Positions 288 to 42,444 of a stretch of 64,000 nt of DNA are shown in pieces. The notes beneath the pieces were generated by a model. That model searched no databases. It saw only the letters and a list, made by a program, of their open reading frames with translations, and was not told the DNA's origin. Positions within the stretch are counted from its first letter, which is position 1, and the number at the start of each line of letters is the position of its first letter. Location: contig JAGLRN010000017.1 in NCBI GenBank assembly GCA_023136265.1, positions 7,509 through 71,508 on the forward strand, read 5' to 3'. The DNA is from Thermoplasmata archaeon. GTDB lineage: Archaea; Thermoplasmatota; Thermoplasmata; RBG-16-68-12; JAGMCJ01. The position numbers were made by a program, and so were the translations under genes.

Positions 288-1763
288 ATGAGCTATGGAA
301 TGCGGAGCAAGCTTTTGAGCTTAGTTCTCGACAAGGGAACCCTTCTTGAGCCCGAGGCTGCCAGCTACATCCTGGAGAAGGAGGACCCGATCTCTTATGT
401 CGAGGATCTGTTCACGCGCTTTCGGGACAAGCCCTTCGTGATCACGATGGAAGAGATTACCAGGGCGGAAGGGATTGCCGTCTTTGCGGCAGAGAAGGCA
501 AAGCGGATACCAGTGGCGGCACCGAGACCGCCCAGGCCGAGGACCCGCGACGTGGGGTCTTCCGCCAAGGACTGTGAGAGCGACATCCGCATCCTGAAGG
601 ACATCACGGGAGAATCGACATGCCAAGGCTCGATAGATGACTTCCACTGCCATTTCAGGAACAGGTTTCACCAGCTCTCAGGAATACTCAAACAAAGGAG
701 AGAGCTGAGGGGATGCGAGGACATCTCGAAGGCAAAGCGGCTGATGAGGGAGATCCGTTTTGTCTGCATGGTCCGCAAGGTGAACAGGACCCGCTCGGGT
801 CATCTCATTCTTGATGTGGAGGACGAGACAGACACAGTGTCGGTTCTGATACCCCCCGAGATGCACTCGGATGACTTCATCCCCGACGAGGTCCTCGGGA
901 TTGTGGGAAAGACAGGCAAGAACGATTTGATGATCGCCGAGAGGGTGTTCAGGCCCGACGTGCCACGAGGCAAGCGGTTCAACGAGGCCGATGTTCCCGT
1001 GTCCGTGGCCTTCCTCGGTGACATCCACGTGGGAAGCAAGACATTCCTTCCCGACCGCTGGGCGAAGCTCGTGGAGTGGCTTGGGAACTCGGACGACCTG
1101 GCGAGAAGGGTGAAGTACGTTGTCGTTCCGGGCGACGCCGTCGACGGGATAGGCGTCTATCCCGGTCAGGACAAGGACCTCGAGATCGATGACATCTACG
1201 GGCAGTACGAGGCTCTTGCGAACCTTCTCTCCCAGCTCCCCGATCACGTGGAGATAATCCTCCAACCCGGGAACCACGATGCCGTCCGACCCGCAGAGCC
1301 TCAGCCAGCTCTTCCCTCCGATGTGAGGAAGGTGTTTCAGGACAACGTGACTTTCGTGGGAAACCCGTGCCTGCTCAGCCTTCACGGTGTCGAGATTCTG
1401 GCCTATCACGGCAGGAGCCTCGATGACTTCGTCGGAGCCTTCCCCGAGGTGTCGTACGAGAGACCGCTGGCGGGGATGAGGGAGATGCTCATCCGGCGTC
1501 ATCTCGCACCCATATACGGCGGGAAGACCCCGATTGCCCCCGAGAGAGAGGACTATCTGGCGATCGACAGGGTTCCCGACGTCTTTGCCACGGGACACGT
1601 CCACTGGGCCGGTATCGAAGAATACAAGGGAGTTGTGATGATCAACTGCTCGACCTGGCAGTCACAGACGGCATTTCAGAGGATGCACAACATGAACCCC
1701 CTTGTCTGCCGCGTTCCGATAGTCAATCTCGAGAGCGGTGCGTACACGATGCTCGAGTTCTAG
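288..1763 (+). CDS. polB: DNA polymerase II (PolD) small subunit DP1, calcineurin-like phosphoesterase/exonuclease
   Basis: GDIHVGSK, VVVPGDAVDG and PGNHD metallophosphoesterase motifs, and DP1-type N-terminus MSYGMRSKLLSLVLDKGTLLEPEAASYIL. The track ORF starts at 252 (TTG); ATG at 288 or 300 is more likely. TATA-like gatatttagattt at 265-277. Confidence 0.9.
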   Translation: MSYGMRSKLLSLVLDKGTLLEPEAASYILEKEDPISYVEDLFTRFRDKPFVITMEEITRAEGIAVFAAEKAKRIPVAAPRPPRPRTRDVGSSAKDCESDIRILKDITGESTCQGSIDDFHCHFRNRFHQLSGILKQRRELRGCEDISKAKRLMREIRFVCMVRKVNRTRSGHLILDVEDETDTVSVLIPPEMHSDDFIPDEVLGIVGKTGKNDLMIAERVFRPDVPRGKRFNEADVPVSVAFLGDIHVGSKTFLPDRWAKLVEWLGNSDDLARRVKYVVVPGDAVDGIGVYPGQDKDLEIDDIYGQYEALANLLSQLPDHVEIILQPGNHDAVRPAEPQPALPSDVRKVFQDNVTFVGNPCLLSLHGVEILAYHGRSLDDFVGAFPEVSYERPLAGMREMLIRRHLAPIYGGKTPIAPEREDYLAIDRVPDVFATGHVHWAGIEEYKGVVMINCSTWQSQTAFQRMHNMNPLVCRVPIVNLESGAYTMLEF

Positions 1764-1766
1764 GCC

Positions 1767-1820
1767 GTGTTGTCCTGAAATCTCCAACAACGGAAGAGCA
1801 AGGACAGGCTCGTCTTCACC
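1767..1820. repeat. Copy A of a ~52-bp interspersed direct repeat (core tctccaacaacggaagagc)
   Basis: gtgttgtcctgaaatctccaacaacggaagagcaaggacaggctcgtcttcacc is ~80% identical to 3150-3206, and the 19-nt core is identical. It lies 4 nt after the polD-DP1 stop. Confidence 0.8.
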
Positions 1821-1868
1821 AAGGGAGCGCAGACCCGGAAGCACCTCGACCTGGCGTACTCACGCACG

Positions 1869-2078
1869 TCAACCCAGCAGTCTCTCTCCCCGATCCCGCA
1901 GGTGATACCTCACCCGCCTCCCGTCCCGCTCGCGCCTCACCGGACCGAGCTCCTGCATCCGCCCGAGAGCGCCCGCCCGCATGGTGTTCACGACCTTCAC
2001 GGACTTGGAATTCCCTACAAGCATCTTCTCCGTCAGCTTGTCAGCCGTGTCCTCCCCCATCGCGATCCAGTGAGCCAT
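1869..2078 (-). CDS. Hypothetical small protein (69 aa from ATG; the frame is open a further 28 codons upstream with no canonical start)
   Basis: High-GC3, protein-like translation MAHWIAMGEDTADKLTEKMLVGNSKSVKVVNTMRAGALGRMQELG... The overlapping + ORF 1902-2219 is Pro/Arg-rich junk. Confidence 0.35.
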   Translation of the reverse strand: MAHWIAMGEDTADKLTEKMLVGNSKSVKVVNTMRAGALGRMQELGPVRRERDGRRVRYHLRDRGERLLG

Positions 2079-2176
2079 CCTTCTGCAGAGCTCGTACTCG
2101 CCCTTGACCTCGTGCTCGAAGTACTCCAGCAGGAAGTCTATCTCTTCCCTGCTGAAGACCTCCGTCGAAATGCCGT

Positions 2177-2198
2177 CGAAACGATTTCATATGGGCGG
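2177..2198. repeat. 22-bp motif cgaaacgatttcatatgggcgg, copy 1 (contains the CATATG palindrome)
   Basis: Identical 22-mer at 2531-2552 and a partial copy (cgaaacgatcc) at 3136-3146. It sits just upstream of the minus small ORF, and copy 2 sits upstream of the + ORF at 2579. Confidence 0.8.
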
Positions 2199-2295
2199 TG
2201 TGCGCCCGCCAAGTCGTGACAGATTCCAGGGAAATCTCCAGGTTTGCGGTGGGTTTTCCGTAGGTCTTCCTCAGTCATTCTCTAGCTCGTCCTAT

Positions 2296-2506
2296 GGTTC
2301 CTCCTGGGTTCCCGCCTAGGTTTCTTGTGAGATCCTTGTGGAATCCTTGTGACATCCTAGGGACTTACCAGGGACCTACTTGCTACATCCTTGCAGGTTC
2401 CTTGCTTGGTCCTTGCAGGTCGCTTGCTGGTTCCTTGCCGAAACCTTGCTCCTCCCTTGCTATTCCTTGCAGGATCCTTGCTGTTCGCTGCTTGCTCCCG
2501 TGCTTG
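2296..2506. repeat. Degenerate tandem array of ~16-18 copies of a 10-12 bp unit (consensus about tccttgcagg)
   Basis: gatccttgtg gaatccttgtg acatcctaggg ... ttccttgcagg atccttgctg ttcgctgcttgc tcccgtgcttg. The only overlapping ORFs are low-complexity (CRSLAGSL...). The array is bounded by the two 22-bp motif copies. Confidence 0.8.
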
Positions 2507-2530
2507 AAAGCGCACGTTTTGCGAAGTTAC

Positions 2531-2552
2531 CGAAACGATTTCATATGGGCGG
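2531..2552. repeat. 22-bp motif cgaaacgatttcatatgggcgg, copy 2
   Basis: Identical to 2177-2198. It lies 27 nt upstream of the ATG at 2579, so it could be a promoter (BRE/TATA-like) element. Confidence 0.8.
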
Positions 2553-2578
2553 GTGGATTCTGACGAAGTGGTAGGGAC

Positions 2579-3121
2579 ATGACTGAGGACAAAGGGCGGC
2601 TTCTGCTTAGGGAAAGCAGGAAGTGGACAAGAAGGAGGAAGATAGAACTATTGTTCCTTCCTGTTATGCTTTGGTTCCCTGTAATATTCTTTCTCTACAT
2701 GATGATCCGGTATCCTTGGGTATTCTCCCATCTGCATCTGACCCTCTTTCTGATCTCCGTTCCATTCGTTTCTCTGAGTCTCTATGGGGTTTTCATGGCT
2801 GCGAAAGCGGGGCCTCTCAATCTGCACGAAACGGGCATCGATAATTTCCGCGCCGGCCTCCTGAAATGGAAGTTCACACACTTGAGAGAGATCGAAACCA
2901 TAGCGATTCAAGTATTCGGCTCCCAAGTCGTAATCCGCTTCTACGTAAGGAACCCTTGGGTGATACACGTCAATCCCCTCATCCCAGAGAAGGAAGACAG
3001 GCGAATGGACAAGCTTCGGGAGGTAGTTGAAATCATGAAGTCCAAAGGTGTCAGGGCGGGATTCGGAGGCAAGCGTGAGGATTTGGAGTTCTTGGAGAGG
3101 AGGCAAGACAGAAGAGCATAG
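2579..3121 (+). CDS. Hypothetical membrane protein (2 predicted TM helices plus a soluble C-terminal part) in a lower-GC segment
   Basis: ATG preceded by the 22-bp motif. Hydrophobic LFLPVMLWFPVIFFLYMMI and LTLFLISVPFVSLSLYGVF segments. GC3 is about 65%, higher than the overlapping antisense ORF 2648-3256, which also looks protein-like. The call is uncertain. Confidence 0.35.
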   Translation: MTEDKGRLLLRESRKWTRRRKIELLFLPVMLWFPVIFFLYMMIRYPWVFSHLHLTLFLISVPFVSLSLYGVFMAAKAGPLNLHETGIDNFRAGLLKWKFTHLREIETIAIQVFGSQVVIRFYVRNPWVIHVNPLIPEKEDRRMDKLREVVEIMKSKGVRAGFGGKREDLEFLERRQDRRA

Positions 3122-3149
3122 AGATGCCTTTTCTCCCGAAACGATCCAA

Positions 3150-3206
3150 TGTGTTATCCCAGAGTCTCCAACAACGGAAGAGCGGGGACAGGCGAGACGT
3201 CCACAG
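3150..3206. repeat. Copy B of the ~52-bp interspersed direct repeat
   Basis: gtgttatcccagagtctccaacaacggaagagcggggacaggcgagacgtccacagg. It lies ~30 nt after the stop of ORF 2579-3121. Confidence 0.8.
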
Positions 3207-3501
3207 GAAACAGAGGTTCTTCTCATGGACCATCCTCCCACAACCGCTGAGCCCATCCAAGAAGTCTCCTTGGGCCATTCTTGTACCAGAAAGCCTTCTG
3301 AGATGTGTCATGCCTCCTTGAATCCCATGAAGCTTGCTGTGCTCTCCACTCTCGATCCGTCTCACTATGAACCTTGTCTCATCATCATTGAGCTTGTGGG
3401 ACATCCCGGCAGGGGATGTCTCCGTTGTTAATGATCTCGGGATGGCACAGCTCGAGTTCTAGACAGAAAAGCTTATCTGCACTGGTCAGGGTCAAGATTT
3501 C

Positions 3502-4212
3502 GTGCGGATAGGTGCCGTGGGCGACATTCATGGAGAGAAGTTCAAGGGGCCTTTTCTTGAGAGTCTCGCGGAGACCAAGGACCTAGATATGTTCCTCATC
3601 GCGGGCGATCTGACGGATGGGAGCGAGGTAGAGGTCTTCAAGAACATCCTGTCACTGATCGAGGGGAGTCTCAGCTGTCCGATAGTCTGTGTCTTCGGCA
3701 ACGAGGAGTACGAGCAGGACAGGGCGTCAATGAGCGAGAACGATGGAACGGTCTTTCTCGATGACGAGAGCGTTCGGATGGAGATTGACGGCCTCGACGT
3801 GAAGGTAGTGGGAAGCACGGGATGTCTGGACCGCCCGACATGGTGGCAGAGGACCAACATCTCGGGGATCTTCCAGAGGTTCAACCGCAGGTTGTCGATG
3901 ATCGACGAGATGCTCAGTGACGACGCATTCACGATTCTGCTCCTGCACTATGCTCCCACCTACGAGACCTTGGTCGGCGAGGAGGAAAGGTACTGGCCTG
4001 AGATGGGCTGCAGGAAGCTGGAGAGGGTCCTGCTCGAGAGGAGGCCGAGCCTCGTGTTCCACGGTCACGCTCACCGCGGGACGCCTGTCGCGGAGTTGAG
4101 GAGGAAGCAGCTCACTCTTTCCGACTTCGAGGGCGAAGAAAGGACGGTCCCCGTCTATAACGTCGCGTTCCCGCTGGTCAAGCACATCACCGTCGTCGAG
4201 ATCGATGCGTAG
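3502..4212 (+). CDS. Metallophosphoesterase (calcineurin-like, MJ0936/YfcE family)
   Basis: GTG start. Motifs GDIHGE, AGDLTD, GNEEY and FHGHAHRG. Confidence 0.75.
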   Translation: MRIGAVGDIHGEKFKGPFLESLAETKDLDMFLIAGDLTDGSEVEVFKNILSLIEGSLSCPIVCVFGNEEYEQDRASMSENDGTVFLDDESVRMEIDGLDVKVVGSTGCLDRPTWWQRTNISGIFQRFNRRLSMIDEMLSDDAFTILLLHYAPTYETLVGEEERYWPEMGCRKLERVLLERRPSLVFHGHAHRGTPVAELRRKQLTLSDFEGEERTVPVYNVAFPLVKHITVVEIDA

Positions 4213-4283
4213 ACGTCCTTCCAGAGAGCGCTGCGAGAAAGGTTTAAGTGAAATCCCTGGTATCTTATCCGTTGAAGGTGCGC

Positions 4284-5387
4284 ATGGAGTCAGAACCCGA
4301 GGACAAGGAGAAGAAGGACCGGAAGAGGAAATGGATCCGTTCCATCCTCTTCCTGCTCCGGGACCTGGGCGTCGCTGCGCTGATCGTGGGGATCATTCTT
4401 CTCTCTCTGTTTCTCTACACGGGTAACTGGCCTCCCATGGTCGTCGTCGAGAGCAAGAGCATGCAGCACAGCGACACCGAGAGTTTCGTTGGAGTCATAG
4501 ACACTGGCGACCTTGTCCTCGTTCAGAATGCACCTTCAAGCTCGGACATAATCACGTACGTGGAGGGTCGAGCCTCGGGATACGGCACTTACGGCGAGTT
4601 CGGTGACGTCATCATTTACAAAGAGGGAGGGCACTTCGAAGCCAAGAGCATCATACATCGTGCACTAATCCGATTGGATTGGAACGAATCGAGCGGGACC
4701 ATTGACATCCCCGATCTGGACAGATTGGAACTCGGCCCGGACTGGTCCGGGAAGATGTCGGGTGGCGAGGACGTCACGTCGCCCTATGGACTTGACGGTA
4801 CGATTACGCTCTACGACGTTGGCTTTGACGATGTGACTGTCACCCTTTCGATAAATACGTACATCTCCCAATTCGGTCCAAGCAACCAGAACGGCAGTGC
4901 GTTTGTTGCCTTGGGAGACAACAACGGAGGCCGCACCGATCCCCATATAATCAGGCAGGAGTGGATTGAGGGAAGGGCGAGGGGCGAGATCCCCTGGTTC
5001 GGGTTGCTGAAGCTCACTCTTTTCAGGGACTCTGGAGCTCCGTGCTGCAGCGAGATATACGATTCTGCTGCCCCGCGGAACAGCTGGGACTCGCTTCTGA
5101 TTGCGATAGTACTGATAATCGCTGTTCCGATCGCTCTGGATTTCGGCATCAGCTATGCTCTGGAGTTCCGTAGGAAGCGCAGGGAAGCGGCGGAAGAAGC
5201 ACCTTCTGAGGCAACAGGTGAGACTACTGAACCGGAAGCGACCGAGCCCGAAACGCCGCTGGAAGAAGAGGCGGAGAAGGAAGAGACGCTCGACGAGCCC
5301 GAATCGCTCGATGCAGAGACCGAGGAACAGGTGGAAGAGCCTCGGAGCGTTCAGGAGCCCGGAACTGACGAGGGGGAGCCCGAGTAG
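4284..5387 (+). CDS. Signal peptidase I (archaeal Sec11/S26B type) with a long inserted region and an acidic C-terminal tail
   Basis: N-terminal TM, VVVESKSMQHS (Ser region), GDLVLVQN and GDNNGGRTDPH boxes. Second TM near the C-terminus followed by an E/T/P-rich tail. The track ORF starts at 4248 (GTG); ATG at 4284 lies ~40 nt after TATA-like aaaggtttaagtg. Confidence 0.65.
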   Translation: MESEPEDKEKKDRKRKWIRSILFLLRDLGVAALIVGIILLSLFLYTGNWPPMVVVESKSMQHSDTESFVGVIDTGDLVLVQNAPSSSDIITYVEGRASGYGTYGEFGDVIIYKEGGHFEAKSIIHRALIRLDWNESSGTIDIPDLDRLELGPDWSGKMSGGEDVTSPYGLDGTITLYDVGFDDVTVTLSINTYISQFGPSNQNGSAFVALGDNNGGRTDPHIIRQEWIEGRARGEIPWFGLLKLTLFRDSGAPCCSEIYDSAAPRNSWDSLLIAIVLIIAVPIALDFGISYALEFRRKRREAAEEAPSEATGETTEPEATEPETPLEEEAEKEETLDEPESLDAETEEQVEEPRSVQEPGTDEGEPE

Positions 5388-5390
5388 AGC

Positions 5391-6623
5391 TCATATGAGG
5401 GTCGTCTGGAACTTCAGTCGGAAGTTCTTGACATTCGAGAGGAGTTCATCCCTTTCCAGCACCCGTCTCGTCTCGAGCGCAGGGACGCTCGACTGGATCT
5501 CCTTCGTTCGACCTCCCCTTCCGAAGGATTTCACACGGGCACTCACGAGCCCGAGCATGTCGAGTTCGGATATGAGGTCCGTTATGCGTCTCTGCGTCAG
5601 GATGCTCATGCCCGTCCTCCGGCAGAGCTGCTTGTACATGCTGTACACATCGCCGGTCGTCATCCTCGTGGCCCCCATCTCCTCGTTCATGATTATGCCG
5701 AGAAGGATCAGCTTCGATTGCGTGGGAAGCGACTTGACGGCCTCGATGACGCAGTCGAGCTCGAGCTGGTTCTTCGCCCGAAGCACGTGCCTGTCCGTGA
5801 TCTTGTTCTCATTGTTCCTCTCGGCGATCTCGGCCGCGACCCTGAGAAGATCAAGGGCTCTCCGCGCGTCCCCGTGCTCCTGTGCCGCGAGGGCCGCGCA
5901 CAGCGATGTGACGCTTTCGTCGATGACGTCGTCGTCAAAGGCCAGATCTGCTCTCTGACCGAGTATGTCTTTCAGCTCCTCGGCGTTGTACGGAGGGAAG
6001 ACCATCTTCTCGTCGCTCAGTCTGCTTCTGACCCTGGGATCGAGGAACTCCGTGAACTTGAGATCGTTGGATATGCCCAGGATGCTGACCTTCGCCTTCT
6101 TCAGGTCCTCGTTTATCCTCGTCAGATGATAGAGTACGTCGTCCCCGCTCTTGTAGATGAGCTTGTCGATCTCATCGAGTACGACAACCACCACGCGCCT
6201 CTCCTCATCGAGCTTCTCCCTCAGCATGTTGTAGACCCTCTCCGTTGGCCAACCTGTGAAGGGGATCCTCTCGTCGAAGTCCTCGATGAACCTGTTTCCC
6301 AAGTTCTGGAGAACACTGTACTGCGTGTCGGTCACCTCGCAGTTCATGTAGAGGTAGTCGACCCGCGACCACTTCTTCGCCTTCTCCACCTCCTTCTGCA
6401 GGTACTTCACCGTCGCAGTCTTCCCTGTTCCAGTTTTCCCGAATATCAGGACGTTGGAAGGTCTCTCGCCCCTCAAGGCCATCGCAAGGATGGAAGCCAG
6501 CTGCTTGATTTGCCTCTCCCTATGGGGCAGGTTCTCTGGGATATAAGAAGGTCTAAGGATGTCCCTGTCCTTCTTGAAGATAGCCTTCATTGCCAGGTAC
6601 GGCTCGAATATGCTGTCTTCCAT
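5391..6623 (-). CDS. cdc6: Orc1/Cdc6 replication initiator (AAA+ with C-terminal winged helix)
   Basis: Walker A GKTGTGKTAT, Walker B VVLDEID, and typical archaeal Orc1 length and organisation. Confidence 0.9.
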   Translation of the reverse strand: MEDSIFEPYLAMKAIFKKDRDILRPSYIPENLPHRERQIKQLASILAMALRGERPSNVLIFGKTGTGKTATVKYLQKEVEKAKKWSRVDYLYMNCEVTDTQYSVLQNLGNRFIEDFDERIPFTGWPTERVYNMLREKLDEERRVVVVVLDEIDKLIYKSGDDVLYHLTRINEDLKKAKVSILGISNDLKFTEFLDPRVRSRLSDEKMVFPPYNAEELKDILGQRADLAFDDDVIDESVTSLCAALAAQEHGDARRALDLLRVAAEIAERNNENKITDRHVLRAKNQLELDCVIEAVKSLPTQSKLILLGIIMNEEMGATRMTTGDVYSMYKQLCRRTGMSILTQRRITDLISELDMLGLVSARVKSFGRGGRTKEIQSSVPALETRRVLERDELLSNVKNFRLKFQTTLI

Positions 6624-6801
6624 GCCTCTCCCCCTGAGAATGCGAAAATGCCCTTTCGCGCCGGATACGAGAAGGACGACAAGGTATTGCCGAGTCCCTA
6701 CAAATACCTTTTCTTAGCCCCGGAATCCGTCGTTGTCGGCTCTCTCGAACACGCAAGGCCGGGAAGTTTGATATACGTCCCAAAGATATTAATGAAGTGA
6801 C

Positions 6802-7374
6802 ATGGCTCTCAAGAGGAAGTTGGCCGTCTCCGGGACTGGAATCGTAGTCGGCATAATCCTCATCGTGATAGCCCTTGCGTATTTCGTGACCGAAACAGGT
6901 AGCGGCCGCGGTCATTGGATGACCGGGGAGGATTCTCTCACGAGCGTCGGATGGATTACGATCACGATCGGAGTCATGCTCATAATCCTCTCTCTAATCT
7001 ATCTTGTCATACCCACCAAGGCTGCGGAGACAAGGAGCGTGACCAAGCTCTACCCGGATCTTGCGGTCATAAGCATCAAGGGAAAGGAAGCACTCAGGAG
7101 CGACATCCCGTTGGAAACCCCTTCCCCGCCCGACGAGGAGCCCTCCGCGTCCTTTGAGCAGATGGCCCTGAGGTTGCTCGAGGGGGATGAAAGGAGAGTA
7201 TATCGCAAGGTCGTTGAGGCCGGAGGAGAAATCCTTCAGAAGGACATCGTTTCGGCGGTGCCGTTCTCCAAGGCCAAGGTCTCGAGGATCATCGATAAGT
7301 TGGAGGGAAGAGGGCTCATCTCGAAAGAAAGGCACGGTTATACTAACAAGATTGTGCTAGCTAAGATGCAGTAA
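6802..7374 (+). CDS. Membrane-anchored winged-helix (MarR/TrmB-like) putative transcription regulator
   Basis: Two N-terminal TM helices, then C-terminal VYRKVVEAGGEILQKDIVSAVPFSKAKVSRIIDKLEGRGLISKER, which is wHTH-like. Confidence 0.5.
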   Translation: MALKRKLAVSGTGIVVGIILIVIALAYFVTETGSGRGHWMTGEDSLTSVGWITITIGVMLIILSLIYLVIPTKAAETRSVTKLYPDLAVISIKGKEALRSDIPLETPSPPDEEPSASFEQMALRLLEGDERRVYRKVVEAGGEILQKDIVSAVPFSKAKVSRIIDKLEGRGLISKERHGYTNKIVLAKMQ

Positions 7375-7495
7375 TCTGCCCGATTTCACGAGCTTTTCAT
7401 TTTCCGAAACCGGTTTCACGAAGGTATGATAGGTCGTTTCAGCCGATAAAGAGGACAATGGTTGCGAGGAGGACCTCGAACCAGGAGGTGAAAGA

Positions 7496-7912
7496 ATGAA
7501 CGCAAGAATAATGGCGGCCTTTGTGGTAATCGCCCTGTTGGGAACAGTAGGGACGGCCTTTGCGCTCGATACCGCTTCGGTCACGAAGAGCAATGCAGAC
7601 GACCAGATGTCAGACACGGGGGAGCAGAACGCCTACACGAACGGCCACGAGTGGAAACACCAATACAAGCCGCAGTGCCAGCACAACGAGGACGGTGCCC
7701 AAGAATCGCAGAACCAGGACATGAGCCAGAACAGGTACCAGTACCAGTACAAGTACAACGAGACGTGCGACAACGACGGAAACCAGTTCAAGCATCAGTA
7801 TAAGAACGAGGGGGAGAATCCGAACGATCCGGACTGCGACCAGAGTCAGGATAGGTTCAGGCACCGCGATCAGGACCACGAGAGGCCAGGGCCAGGGCCT
7901 GATGGGCCGTAG
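7496..7912 (+). CDS. Secreted low-complexity Q/N/D/Y-rich small protein
   Basis: Signal peptide MNARIMAAFVVIALLGTVGTAFA. Repeated HQYK/YQYQYKY motifs, 4 Cys. Followed by a hairpin plus T-run. Confidence 0.5.
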   Translation: MNARIMAAFVVIALLGTVGTAFALDTASVTKSNADDQMSDTGEQNAYTNGHEWKHQYKPQCQHNEDGAQESQNQDMSQNRYQYQYKYNETCDNDGNQFKHQYKNEGENPNDPDCDQSQDRFRHRDQDHERPGPGPDGP

Positions 7913-7940
7913 AACAACGCAAGCTCACCCACTCTAGAAG

Positions 7941-7970
7941 GGGACGCAAGTCCCCACCTTTCCCTTTTTT
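7941..7970 (+). terminator. Hairpin ggggacgcaagtcccc followed by a T-rich tract (cccttttttcg)
   Basis: Perfect 6-bp stem with a 4-nt loop, then an oligo-T run downstream of the 7496-7912 CDS. Archaeal termination typically uses oligo-T. Confidence 0.5.
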
Positions 7971-8059
7971 CGACCTGGATTGCGAAGTCCACAACGGTCC
8001 AGGGGAAAACATTAATACTCAGCCAGGCTCATATAGTTAGAAAGCAGGGGGAGGGGAAC

Positions 8060-40489: not shown

Positions 40490-41215
40490 ATGGAAGGCAT
40501 GAAATCATACAGAACCTTCGTCAAAGGCCTCGATGAGGAAATCGAAGGGGGCATCCCCCAGGGTCATGTTGTTCTTATCGCGGGTCCTCCAGGGACGATG
40601 AAGTCGAGCTTGGCGTACAGCATGCTCTACCACAACGCCGCCAAGAAGAAGATTCGCGGCATGTACTTCACGCTCGAGCAGAGCAGGAAGAGTCTAGAGT
40701 TCCAGATGTCTCGTCTGAAAATGGATCCGAAGCTGGTCATGGACACTCTCAGGGTACAGGACCTGTCGAGGATAAGAAAAGGAATAGACGAGGTCAGGGG
40801 AAGACCCAGGTTCGGCAGGGAGGTCGAACGCCCCTGGTTGGAGGTTCTGAAGAAGATTCTCGAGGACATGAGAGATACTGAGAAGTACGAACTCCTCGCG
40901 ATAGACTCTCTGCCCATCCTCGAGATAATCTCAAAGCTCAAAGACAGAAGGATTCAGCTCTTCCACTTCTTCGAGTGGCTCAGGGACCTCGGGCTGACCA
41001 CGTTGATCATCACAGAGACATCACCTCAGATAGGTGAGGTCCACGACGAGGACTTCCTCGCCGACGGAGTCATTAATATACTCATGGAGAAGGTCGGAGA
41101 CATAGATGTCTACCGACGGATAAGGATCGTGAAGCTCAGGGGAGTGAACCACAACACTGGGTTCTTCACGCTCGAGTACAAGCAGGACCGGTTCCAGGTC
41201 TCTCAGGTGATCTAG
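40490..41215 (+). CDS. KaiC-like/RecA-superfamily ATPase with a non-canonical P-loop (AGPPGTMKSS)
   Basis: KaiC-domain layout: GGIPQGHVVLIAGPPGTMKS, FTLEQS, Walker B LLAIDSL. The Gly preceding the P-loop Lys is replaced by Met. Confidence 0.8.
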   Translation: MEGMKSYRTFVKGLDEEIEGGIPQGHVVLIAGPPGTMKSSLAYSMLYHNAAKKKIRGMYFTLEQSRKSLEFQMSRLKMDPKLVMDTLRVQDLSRIRKGIDEVRGRPRFGREVERPWLEVLKKILEDMRDTEKYELLAIDSLPILEIISKLKDRRIQLFHFFEWLRDLGLTTLIITETSPQIGEVHDEDFLADGVINILMEKVGDIDVYRRIRIVKLRGVNHNTGFFTLEYKQDRFQVSQVI

Positions 41216-42444
41216 GGCTCCTCGAAGAGATTCATGTATTTTATCACGGCAAGCTCTTCAGGCGTGTAGTCCTTCCTCTTTTCGAGCCCTTCTAGACCCT
41301 TTGTCGAGATCAGCTTGAACGACAGCGGGTGCCCCTCCGTCAAGCTGAAAATCCTCTCAAACTCCTTCTTCTCGATCTTCCTTTTGAGGAGCTTCTTGCA
41401 GCTCCTCTTGTCAAGCCCATCAAGGATGACCTCGCTAAGCGCCCCCCTCGCGAGCAGTTCCCTTTCCTTCGGTATGTCCCCGTTCTCGGAGATTAATACA
41501 ACCTTGGCCTCCGAGCTCCTCTCGACAACCTGGAGGACGTGATAGAATACCGTCGCCAGTTCAGGGGACATCTCCGCAAGGTCGTCGAAGAACAGCATGG
41601 CACGCGTGTCCTTGAGTCTCGTTGCGAGCGCGCCCAAAGCACTCCTCAGGTCTCTTCCCCCGCCTTCGAGATAGTCGCCCAATCCGGGCTTTCCAAGTTG
41701 CCCGAGGAAGGAAGAGAATGCGCCCAGAAGTGTCTCGGGGGTGTCCCACTGCCTGAAGGAGTACCAGAACAGGTTCAATCGGTTCTTGGACGCCGCATAG
41801 ACACGAGCCGCAAGCGATGACTTGCCCATCCCCTCAGCCCCGCGGATAGCCAGTATCTTGCCCTCAGATGCTTTCGTCCAGTCCTCGATCTCCTCCATCT
41901 CCTTCTCTCTTCCGTAGAACGGTTCCGTGAGAACCAGACCCTCCGCGAAGGACAGGAATCTCTCCTTCTTCTCGGAAGGCCTCATCTCCAGGTCCTCTAT
42001 GTTCAGTATGCCGCTGTCGTCCGTCCTACAGATGACCTCCGTTAGCGTGTGGCGAACCCCGACGTGCTTGTCGATGTCGAGGAGAGAGACCTCCTTGATG
42101 GAATCATCGTCCTTCCGTATCTTCACCCTCTTCTTCAGGACCTCCTCTTTGACTCGCTCGGCGAGACTGTATCCGTCCTCCGTGTAACCGTAGACCTTTC
42201 GCTTCCTCAGCTGTCCTCTCACCCTTCCCATGGCCTCGGTGACCAGGTCCTCCTTCTTCAGCTGAGAGATGGCCCTCGAAACGTGATTGACACGGATGCC
42301 CGTGGAGCCAGCGATGCCCTCCTGGGTGAGCCCAGAATGCACGTCCAGGAGATCCCTCGGCTGAGGAGTCTCCCGCAGATGAAGGATTATCTTCTCCTTG
42401 GCGGTCAGGTCATTCCTAGTGAGCCATTCTCCCCTTTTGACCAT
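41212..42444 (-). CDS. wHTH plus archaeal AAA ATPase (Arch_ATPase/PF01637-like) putative regulator
   Basis: N-terminal HTH (LTQEGIAGSTGIRVNHVSRAISQLKKEDLV), Walker A IRGAEGMGKSSLA, Walker B MLFFDDL. Confidence 0.7.
   Translation of the reverse strand: MVKRGEWLTRNDLTAKEKIILHLRETPQPRDLLDVHSGLTQEGIAGSTGIRVNHVSRAISQLKKEDLVTEAMGRVRGQLRKRKVYGYTEDGYSLAERVKEEVLKKRVKIRKDDDSIKEVSLLDIDKHVGVRHTLTEVICRTDDSGILNIEDLEMRPSEKKERFLSFAEGLVLTEPFYGREKEMEEIEDWTKASEGKILAIRGAEGMGKSSLAARVYAASKNRLNLFWYSFRQWDTPETLLGAFSSFLGQLGKPGLGDYLEGGGRDLRSALGALATRLKDTRAMLFFDDLAEMSPELATVFYHVLQVVERSSEAKVVLISENGDIPKERELLARGALSEVILDGLDKRSCKKLLKRKIEKKEFERIFSLTEGHPLSFKLISTKGLEGLEKRKDYTPEELAVIKYMNLFEEP

Follow-up and report, generated by a model that had tools for sequence, protein, structure and literature searches.

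Archaeal replication origins (oriC) lie next to orc1/cdc6 and are built from pairs of ORB or mini-ORB elements, usually inverted, with an AT-rich unwinding element between them. Partition centromeres are another kind of repeated DNA: ParR recognises ten 11-bp repeats in R1 parC, the winged-helix (wHTH) protein TubR binds to tubC, and AspA is the partition centromere binder of pNOB8. Further points of comparison are strain-variable (flexible) genomic islets, hotspots of insertion that adjoin conserved genes, elements integrated at the 3' end of genes, and variable-number tandem repeats, i.e., minisatellites.

We analysed a window of 64,000 nucleotides from a Thermoplasmata archaeon, in which a repeat-rich block (1764-3449, Table 1) separates the polD DP1 gene from a metallophosphoesterase (MPE) gene. 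This block resembles an archaeal oriC by its nearness to orc1/cdc6 and polD, its repeats and its locally lower GC. However, it contains no match to the ORB consensus and no duplex unwinding element (DUE), its repeats are direct and not inverted, and it is conserved neither in relatives nor even among strains. Like partition centromeres, it has tandem repeats with a period close to a helical turn, their core conserved, and next to them a gene for a winged-helix protein of about 100 aa. Unlike them, it lies on a chromosome, lacks a ParA, ParM or TubZ partner, and has an array that is dispensable and varies far more; the would-be binding protein has lost its start codon in this strain, and the structural similarity is generic. 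The likeness to flexible islets lies in the empty site found in relatives, in a GC lower than that of the flanks, and in a content that varies among conspecific strains and includes surface-protein and orphan genes. As in elements integrated at 3' ends, the direct repeat that bounds the block falls on the end of its target, here the 3' end of DP1. Unlike such islets and integrated elements, the block is only 1.7 kb long, has no integrase, transposase or tRNA target, is bounded by a repeat of merely 13 bp, and was found neither free nor at a second site. Finally, its array shows, as minisatellites do, whole-unit length polymorphism between near-identical strains, but its core positions are far better conserved than its spacer. 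We consider it likely that 1764-3449 entered this lineage alone, by insertion at the DP1 stop, and is now a decaying, recombination-prone variable region.

Table 1. Features of the block between DP1 and MPE and of its borders (window positions)
Feature	Position	Strand	Description
Left 13-bp direct repeat, GCTCGAGTTCTAG	1751-1763	+	Last codons and stop of DP1; left insertion boundary
R1	1767-1809	+	First copy of the 43-bp repeat; begins 3 nt past the DP1 stop, 3' of the convergent winged-helix ORF
wHTH ORF	1872-2165	-	98 codons; annotated only from an internal ATG at 2078 (69 aa)
Possible ancestral-gene remnant	2166-2258	-	Family homology crosses an in-frame TGA (2188-2190); tblastn alignments reach 2195-2258
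M1	2177-2198	+	22-bp motif, BRE/TATA-like (CGAAAC + GATTTCAT), oriented into the array
Tandem array	2291-2505 (approx.)	none	About 18 units of 11 bp, consensus TCCTTGCAGGT
Small hairpin + TTTT	2499-2520	+	CGTGC/GCACG stem, 8-nt loop, end of the array unit; read from sequence
M2	2531-2552	+	Exact second M copy; 27-48 nt upstream of the ATG (2579) of the 180-aa ORF
180-aa ORF	2579-3121	+	Two predicted transmembrane helices (by eye) and a soluble tail
M3	3137-3150	+	Degenerate third M copy, CGAAACGATCCAAT; immediately upstream of R2
R2	3151-3193	+	Second copy of the 43-bp repeat
Right-hand insertion segment	3194-3449	none	No reading frame clearly maintained; hairpin with a 10-bp stem at 3398-3422
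Right 13-bp direct repeat, GCTCGAGTTCTAG	3450-3462	+	Ancestral sequence picks up again here
Context	3463-4212	+	Ancestral DP1-MPE spacer (39 bp), which itself carries a BRE/TATA-like element, then the MPE gene (3502-4212)

An insertion at the DP1 stop and its variation among strains

We demonstrated that 1764-3449 is an insertion and that it varies among strains. In 22 related Thermoplasmata loci, which span 43-77% DP1 identity, the DP1 stop is separated from MPE by 35-45 bp, vs. 1384-4099 bp in the present lineage, the only one with a kb-scale gap. The gene order DP1-MPE-peptidase-cdc6 is kept without the block in the nearest outgroup (L023) and in 21 more distant relatives. L023 presents the empty site: window position 1763 is there joined directly to 3450, with a 13-bp overlap, and the 13-bp repeat is found as a single copy (GCTCGAGTTCAAG). 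All members of the lineage share one and the same left junction (TTCTAGGC[C/T]GTGTT), and likewise that of R1. We infer that the block was inserted in a single event and that recombination accounts for its later remodelling. Among the proposals of an earlier, sequence-only reading of this DNA, that of a decayed inserted element was borne out: the outgroup has an empty site, 13-bp direct repeats flank the block, a gene within it survives as a truncated remnant, start codons have been lost, and deletions and insertions are nested in it. The drop in GC that it had described is present as well, but it is modest (0.513 over 2177-3449 vs. a window mean of 0.564): no other 1.27-kb stretch of the window is lower in GC, yet this one is not AT-rich.

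The block was found only at the present locus and is therefore at most a candidate mobile element. Pfam and PHROG scans detected no integrase, transposase or other mobility gene in the insert or in the ORFs of the variant cassettes, and plasmid and phage collections held no match to the element. The 20 loci returned by a metagenome scan for the core of the R repeat were all chance matches, and the same holds for the matches in viral contigs. In a second context (L077), only the 3' part of the wHTH ORF recurs. In the right-hand segment, where the frame was judged from the substitution pattern, L033-35 carry a 1-bp indel, and homology searches gave lineage-specific matches only. A reading of the right end (3300-3449) as a diverged DP1 3' end, by comparison with integrative elements that restore their target gene, was rejected: the alignment score, 17 with the 13-bp core excluded, was reached by 242 of 2000 shuffles.

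Strains that are 97-99% identical differ in the presence and in the length of the array. L043 lacks 2201-2530 and is otherwise unchanged; its 354-bp deletion is consistent with a recombination between M1 and M2. In L033-35 and L036, 2548-3133 is missing and NosD-type beta-helix genes are found at differing positions. A 2236-bp deletion (1933-4168), located at a CCCGCT microhomology, removed most of the block together with MPE in L003 and L004; in L076, 3418 is joined to 2519; and additional inserted genes are present in L002 and L075 (one MAG). The variant content includes genes for surface proteins, i.e., NosD-type beta-helix proteins and a beta-propeller-like secreted repeat protein, plus orphan genes.

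Repeat families and promoter-like modules

The three repeat families that had been claimed are all real, located where they had been placed and above chance level, although two of their dimensions had to be corrected. The direct repeat R, which had been given as 52 bp, is 43 nt long without gaps, and its copies are 84% identical. Its exact 19-nt core (TCTCCAACAACGGAAGAGC) has two occurrences in 64 kb at up to 3 mismatches, vs. 0 expected. Within genomes, R1 and R2 share strain-specific changes and thus evolve in concert; the R alignment displays no compensatory pairs and no structural covariation. The 22-bp motif M (CGAAACGATTTCATATGGGCGG) occurs, as claimed, in two exact copies where none is expected, and we added to them a degenerate third copy, M3, which reads CGAAACGATTTAAT in L033 and L038. 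The period of the tandem array is 11 bp and not about 10 bp, and the pattern formed by two of its units was found 7 times, always within the array, vs. 0.05 expected. The arrangement of R, M and array is found again in at least 5 independent assemblies and is therefore not an assembly artefact.

The array counts from 13 to 24 units depending on the strain, with length differences that follow a step of about 11 bp rather than 3, and its variant in L036 carries an internal duplication. We showed that it is non-coding: the 89-aa ORF that it contains (2294-2563) is excluded as a gene by length differences of 11 and 22 bp among strains. Its 7-bp core (TCCTTGC) is conserved and its spacer variable (0.7-1.7 vs. 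0.2-0.4 bits per position), a contrast that hints at a constraint or at the recent amplification of a mixed unit. The small hairpin at its end, conserved in L033, L036 and L076, is possibly a terminator, as a candidate scoring under the threshold of the scanning tool.

M fits, in the plus orientation only, a pattern made of GAAA and an A/T-rich 8-mer, which is found upstream of 5 of 25 genes vs. 1.4% of random windows. M2 has the build of a BRE/TATA element (purine-rich BRE, A/T-rich box, spacing and orientation to the 180-aa ORF), and it is probably the promoter of this ORF. In L033 and L036, a similar module precedes the NosD ATG by about 45 nt. A point against is that M1 overlaps with what remains of the ancestral gene's coding frame. 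By its pattern, M may act as a promoter, and to this extent the idea of a regulatory region is partly supported.

The 180-aa ORF is an orphan confined to the present strain cluster, and its segment is missing in L033-36, L075 and L076. It varies by 6 synonymous and 11 non-synonymous changes without any stop, while the overlapping minus-strand ORF gains a stop in L043; between the two strands, both of which had been noted for protein-like translations at 2579-3256, the plus-strand frame is thus better supported. Neither the 180-aa ORF nor the ORF at 3051-3404 had a match in the libraries run. The description of the region as gene-poor thus has to be qualified, as it must be for the wHTH ORF, which is under purifying selection.

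The winged-helix ORF and its parent family

Among the locus variants, the dN/dS of the wHTH ORF is 0.17-0.28. This purifying selection indicates that the region is not purely junk. The ORF matches the C-terminal domains of proteins of about 340 aa, with profile E-values down to 1e-12; by tblastn, the similarity covers the C-terminal 85-100 residues or so, at 33-44% identity, and these alignments show its homology to the family at the sequence level. In the window, the start position is occupied by ACG (2163-2165), with no ATG, GTG or TTG there, vs. ATG in L076. Most strains, the window included, have no start codon for the first helices. Moreover, the in-frame TGA upstream of the ORF is TGG in L076, and the homology to the family ends by about 2258.

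The parent family (P0010-P0063) is uncharacterised and has an RHH-wHTH-wHTH architecture. Genes for its full-length members come first in an operon of three, with type II restriction-modification genes as neighbours (an Eco57I-type methylase and a PstI-like nuclease). By contrast, the window ORF is a stand-alone fragment: the N-terminal RHH and the middle domain (WGQYNR and PRGERLS motifs) are missing from it, as are both partner genes from its locus. For this ORF and for the family, Pfam, PHROG, NCBIfam and PADLOC gave only weak winged-helix matches, and the PDB, searched by sequence and by fold, yielded wHTH and RHH matches of a generic kind only. The fold matches of the parent-family domains include the centromere binders AspA and TubR amid many generic wHTH regulators, all with E > 0.04, and the structure model of the single domain is poor (pLDDT 55).

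Competing readings of the block

The sequence-only reading had proposed a candidate replication origin. In such an origin, the 43-bp repeats would be divergent ORBs for Orc1/Cdc6, and the array with the low-GC zone a region of binding or unwinding. Indeed, orc1/cdc6 is 1.9 kb away, polD DP1 adjoins the block, and the block contains repeats and the window's lowest GC. Against this stands the comparison with relatives: the block is missing from L023 and from the 21 more distant relatives with the same gene order, and what these relatives present instead is a simple coding region, an outcome that the sequence-only reading had itself named as a refutation. Moreover, strains that are nearly identical differ in the array, which L043 dispenses with, and L003 and L004 have lost most of the block. 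The ORB consensus is CTTCCAGTGGAAACGAAAGGGGT in archaea and GTTCCAGTGGAAATGGAGGGGTA in Methanomassiliicoccales (PMC4153887). The likeness to it that had been seen in the R core (TCCA-N5-GGAA) has a wrong spacing and found no support; R copies are direct, not inverted, and their dyad spacing is wrong. Nine published Methanomassiliicoccales ORBs served to build a scoring matrix, on which the best score in the window was 13.9, vs. self-scores of 30-35 and shuffle maxima of 10.6-23.3; nothing in the window exceeded the shuffle level, and nothing in the locus of any relative reached 15. A lone partial ORB-like string (TCCACAGGAAACAGAGG) follows R2 at 3200-3216, but it scores below 8 on this matrix, and mini-ORB matches are at chance level (5 vs. 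3.5 expected). No canonical ORB was found within 10 kb of the present cdc6 in any relative, and no AT-rich, DUE-like tract in the region: the most AT-rich 80 nt (36% GC) lie in the 180-aa ORF, whose hydrophobic part they encode, and are equalled at many places of the window. At the scale of the window, GC skew tracks gene orientation and locates no origin. Some other candidates were dismissed, i.e., a 9-mer (AACAACGGA) present 5 times in the first 10.3 kb vs. 0.37 expected from shuffles (534 other 9-mers occur at least 5 times in the window), and an inverted repeat (6726-6747 / 7759-7780) and an R-like string upstream of cdc6, neither of which is conserved in L023. The origin is thus already largely refuted by comparative data, and we regard it as very improbable.

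On the other hand, the block could be maintained and not decaying, as a DNA-binding module whose array would be occupied cooperatively by the wHTH protein, with one core for each turn of the helix, in the manner of an autoregulatory operator or of a centromere. The 11-bp period, the conserved 7-bp core and the free spacer would suit such a module, and the wHTH gene, with its purifying selection, adjoins the array in the window, L036 and L076, but in L033 and L075 a NosD gene lies between them. AspA and TubR figure among the fold matches of the parent family, and short 11-bp iteron runs of like style exist in unrelated viral contigs; these fold matches are generic, however, and neither the window neighbourhood nor any variant has a gene for a motor NTPase (ParA, ParM or TubZ). 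The loci of full-length family members have no such array, the protein has in most strains no start codon for its first helices, and L043 lost the array without other change. We consider this module unlikely, and to see in the cores at helical-turn spacing a putative binding array for the adjacent protein is speculative. Distinctly unlikely, in our view, is its most far-reaching form, i.e., that the freed wHTH domain of a defence-island operon regulator, kept under selection, makes up with the array a new chromosomal protein-iteron module between polD-DP1 and orc1/cdc6. The array could also be the body of a non-coding RNA of about 300 nt, made of UCCUUGC repeats and extending from M1 to the hairpin with its U4, which might, e.g., sequester an RNA-binding factor as a sponge. 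The promoter-like M1 does face the array, which cannot be coding and ends on a hairpin and TTTT; but on both strands its folding is indistinguishable from that of shuffled sequence (z = -1.8 and -0.9), no Rfam match was found at gathering or E-value thresholds, and L043 does without it, which leaves this RNA improbable. As to the polarity of the event, the 13-bp direct repeat could equally mediate a precise deletion, by which an ancestral block would have been lost in L023 and in all other relatives. This requires a loss in 22 of 22 relatives, spread over the whole range of DP1 identity and each ending at the same short spacer, and is hardly credible.

The preferred reading remains that of a decaying insertion. 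The element would have entered once, exactly at the DP1 stop, in the ancestor of a species-level Thermoplasmata group, leaving the 13-bp direct repeat behind. Afterwards, it would have become a decaying variable region with one minus-strand gene and three plus-strand units. The former would encode a small DNA-binding protein of winged-helix type, in which the C-terminal domain of the ~340-aa family survives, and each of the latter would be headed by a copy of one BRE/TATA-type promoter module, the 22-bp motif: M1 would lead into the 11-bp array and the small hairpin with its T4; M2 into the orphan 180-aa membrane ORF; and M3 into R2, about 250 nt without maintained frame, and a hairpin. The M and R repeats would be the substrates of homologous recombination, cassettes being gained and lost, and the array would change its length by slippage, in 11-bp steps.

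In conclusion, a false oriC candidate is removed for an uncultured Thermoplasmata lineage. The proximity of orc1/cdc6 and polD, even together with repeats, does not make an origin, and one comparison with relatives settles the question here. This comparison also brought to light a conserved DP1-metallophosphoesterase gene pair. The uncharacterised three-gene operon found beside restriction-modification genes may merit study as a defence system. If the protein-iteron module were true, it would be centromere-like or a dosage-tunable operator array, with array length as a strain-level tuning knob. The locus itself provides a record, at the base-pair level, of a small insertion remodelled among strains via a duplicated promoter module and a 43-bp repeat.

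A lineage-specific insertion between DP1 and the phosphoesterase gene

The DNA under study matches metagenome scaffold ENA ERZ23498471; among public relatives, Thermoplasmata MAGs come closest to it. A scan for relatives of the polD small subunit DP1 yielded 31 loci. At 22 of these loci, where DP1 identity is 43-77%, the metallophosphoesterase (MPE) gene starts 35-45 bp past the DP1 stop; the lineage to which the window belongs has a gap of 1384-4099 bp. L023, the nearest outgroup, matches 15-1763 of the window and then passes straight to 3450-7978. At this junction, L023 has a single copy of the 13-bp GCTCGAGTTCTAG, which ends DP1, and the window has two; the 39 bp preceding MPE are the ancestral spacer and carry a promoter-like element of their own. 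The left junction is identical in all lineage members, which suggests one ancestral insertion event. We searched for a diverged DP1 3' end at the right end of the insert, and it could not be shown. No integrase or transposase was found in any variant, and plasmid and phage collections gave no match to the block; we thus speak of an insertion rather than of a demonstrated mobile element. The empty site, the 13-bp direct repeat and the strain variants bear out the decayed inserted element that was one of the alternatives of the sequence-only reading: the insertion is real, has clear limits, is specific to this lineage, and is decaying and recombining.

Features of the insertion and its neighbourhood
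Feature	Position	Strand
polD small subunit DP1	252/288-1763	plus
13-bp direct repeat	1751-1763; 3450-3462	
Direct repeat R1	1767-1809	
Winged-helix ORF	1872-2165	minus
Motif M1	2177-2198	plus
11-bp tandem array	~2291 to ~2505	
Small hairpin and TTTT	2499-2520	
Motif M2	2531-2552	plus
Motif M3 (degenerate)	3137-3150	
Direct repeat R2	3151-3193	
Strong hairpin	3398-3422	
Ancestral spacer	3463-3501	
MPE	3502-4212	plus
Membrane protein	4248-5387	plus
orc1/cdc6	5391-6623	minus
MarR-like protein, membrane-anchored	6802-7374	plus
138-aa ORF	7496-7912	
PF01637-type ATPase	41212-42444	minus

Across the Thermoplasmata relatives L005-L031, DP1 and the 236-aa MPE form a tight pair, which suggests that PolD and the phosphoesterase are functionally connected; the MPE gene is nevertheless lost in the lineage loci L003 and L004. 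Downstream of the MarR-like gene, the 138-aa ORF is rich in Gln, Asn, Asp and His, contains short 6-nt tandem repeats (7731-7758) and has no family match.

Repeats, predicted promoter modules and the origin reading

The three repeat families reported in this zone all exist, in an arrangement that recurs in at least five independent assemblies. The direct repeat, put at 52 bp, is 43 nt long without gaps (84% identity), and contains an exact 19-nt core absent elsewhere in the 64 kb. The 22-nt motif M, CGAAACGATTTCATATGGGCGG, has two exact copies, and the degenerate M3 lies immediately 5' of R2. The ~220-bp array is also real, with ~18 units and a period of 11 bp instead of ~10. The GC drop holds in so far as 2177-3449 is the window's minimum for a stretch of that size (0.513 vs a mean of 0.564), yet it is not AT-rich. 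In each array unit, 7 bp form a conserved core and 4 bp a free spacer, and the array ends in a small hairpin followed by TTTT. It cannot be coding, forms no significant RNA structure, and is best described as an unstable, iteron-like 11-bp array. A pattern scan, and nothing else, brought up short intergenic 11-bp iteron runs of 3-5 units with TCCTTGC on viral contigs unrelated to the window in sequence (L070:5433-5461, L072:3150-3178, L073:564-592). Separately, a strong hairpin (10-bp stem, 6 G-C pairs, T-rich tail) is located within the insertion, ~30 bp from its right end; the reverse complement of the hairpin's 3' stem part and tail contains AACAACGGAGA, resembling the R core.

A regulatory role and a replication origin had both been proposed here. 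Upstream regions of the window's genes commonly carry GAAA(G/A/C) and then, 25-50 nt ahead of the start codon, a box rich in A/T; a crude form of this pattern is enriched 14-fold in regions upstream of genes. M1 and M2 fit it in the plus orientation only; M2 lies 27-48 nt 5' of the ATG of a 180-aa ORF, and an M-like module precedes the NosD genes of the variants L033 and L036. We infer that M is a duplicated BRE/TATA promoter module, so that the regulatory proposal stands as a prediction for this motif. The 180-aa ORF, an orphan in homolog searches, shows 6 synonymous and 11 non-synonymous differences and no stop between strains, while the minus-strand ORF overlapping it acquires a stop in strain variant L043; we regard the 180-aa ORF as an orphan membrane gene. 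In 3194-3449, no clearly maintained frame was found, and relatives are lineage-specific only. On the origin side, Methanomassiliicoccales, also Thermoplasmata, have ORBs fitting GTTCCAGTGGAAATGG-AGGGGTA beside orc1/cdc6 (PMC4153887). A matrix built from these nine published sites gave window scores no higher than those of shuffled sequence, and none of at least 15 bits in the relatives' loci; mini-ORB matches are at chance level, and a partial ORB match past R2 (3200-3216) is single and low-scoring. No DUE-like tract was found in the region, and GC skew at window scale tracks gene orientation. Since, moreover, the block is variable between strains and missing in relatives, whose simple DP1-MPE junction is the outcome that the sequence-only reading had itself set against its proposal, an origin finds no support here, and the insertion remains our reading of the block.

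In the distant relatives L005-L031, a strongly conserved non-coding block lies ~230 bp upstream of orc1/cdc6 (e.g., L015:14572-14800; CGTATCAGGGG..CCCACAAAAAGGTTTGCGA..CGATTTTTATTC..ATGATAG..TTGAAAGTTCA). Canonical ORBs are absent from it, and it may harbour origin or regulatory elements that are lineage-specific; the cdc6 spacer of the window lineage is shorter (178 bp) and different. A 410-aa ORF of orc1/cdc6 length was rejected as a second cdc6, being an archaeal PF01637-type ATPase with an N-terminal HTH.

The winged-helix ORF and its parent family

The minus-strand ORF is open over 98 codons, and annotation starts only at ATG 2078. When 1.8 billion representatives were searched with its profile, it turned up as a small protein in this lineage only; elsewhere, its domain makes up the last ~85 residues, at the C-terminus, of proteins of ~330-400 aa (59 matches, E down to 1e-12) that belong to no Pfam, NCBIfam or PADLOC family. 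The parent model is confident (pLDDT 91), with helical and winged-helix domains. Its N-terminal region has a weak CopG/Arc/MetJ-type match in a PDB sequence search, and a fold search returned generic matches only. In the window, homology runs past an in-frame TGA to ~2195-2258; the variant L076 has TGG for this TGA and ATG for the ACG at 2163-2165. The dN/dS of 0.17-0.28 among locus variants argues that the domain is maintained as a protein, this strain cluster having no canonical start for the first helices. The fragment would be either domesticated or dying, and together with the array it is a candidate for a mildly novel working module. A second fragment (L077, 82% identical) adjoins an NPPY methylase.

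Two full-length members lead a three-gene operon (L068:8001-12076, L069:418-4561) encoding proteins of ~340, ~680 and ~310 aa. The first has the helical and winged-helix domains and the weak RHH-type N-terminal match; the second has an N-terminus that looks GHKL-type ATPase-like by eye (EAIQNAVDA ... DYGTTGM) and no Pfam match. The operon adjoins an Eco57I-type methylase and a PstI-like nuclease, which makes it a candidate defence-island system; a PADLOC scan of ~340-aa family members gave no match.

Strain-to-strain reshuffling

Variants were read from contigs carrying the small winged-helix ORF or its relatives. L043 (99% identical) lacks 2201-2530 and keeps a single M copy, the outcome that recombination of M1 with M2 would give. 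Arrays are longer by 11 and 22 bp in L038 and L040, and count 13, 17 and 24 units in L075, L076 and L036. In L076, 3418 is joined to 2519, and in L003/L004, 1933-4168, including MPE, is deleted at a CCCGCT microhomology. The segment 2548-3133, with the 180-aa ORF, is missing in L033-35 and L075, and compared with L033 it is flanked on both sides by CGAAACGAT. Differences common to R1 and R2 are strain-specific (TCTCT and a 6-nt insertion in L033-35, TCTCC in the window), which indicates gene conversion between the two copies.

L002 and L075, from one MAG, hold additional genes and suggest a larger insertion split between two contigs. In L002:5322-6130 (MAG RS_17_1), the sequence diverges past R1 into unrelated DNA with a short fragment resembling an HdrA-like N-terminus by eye, and with the 115-aa end of an ORF that has no family match. 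L075:3971-5166 encodes a secreted repeat protein with WTS[IL]ALD..PHISY repeats (DUF7253). NosD-type beta-helix proteins occupy differing positions of the hotspot: a 586-aa gene lies between the small ORF and M1 in L033-35 and L075 (L033:2969-4729, L075:1833-3593), and an 878-aa gene has inserted into a duplicate of the small ORF in L036 (2078-4714). The NosD-type and DUF7253 genes point to surface-protein turnover at this locus.
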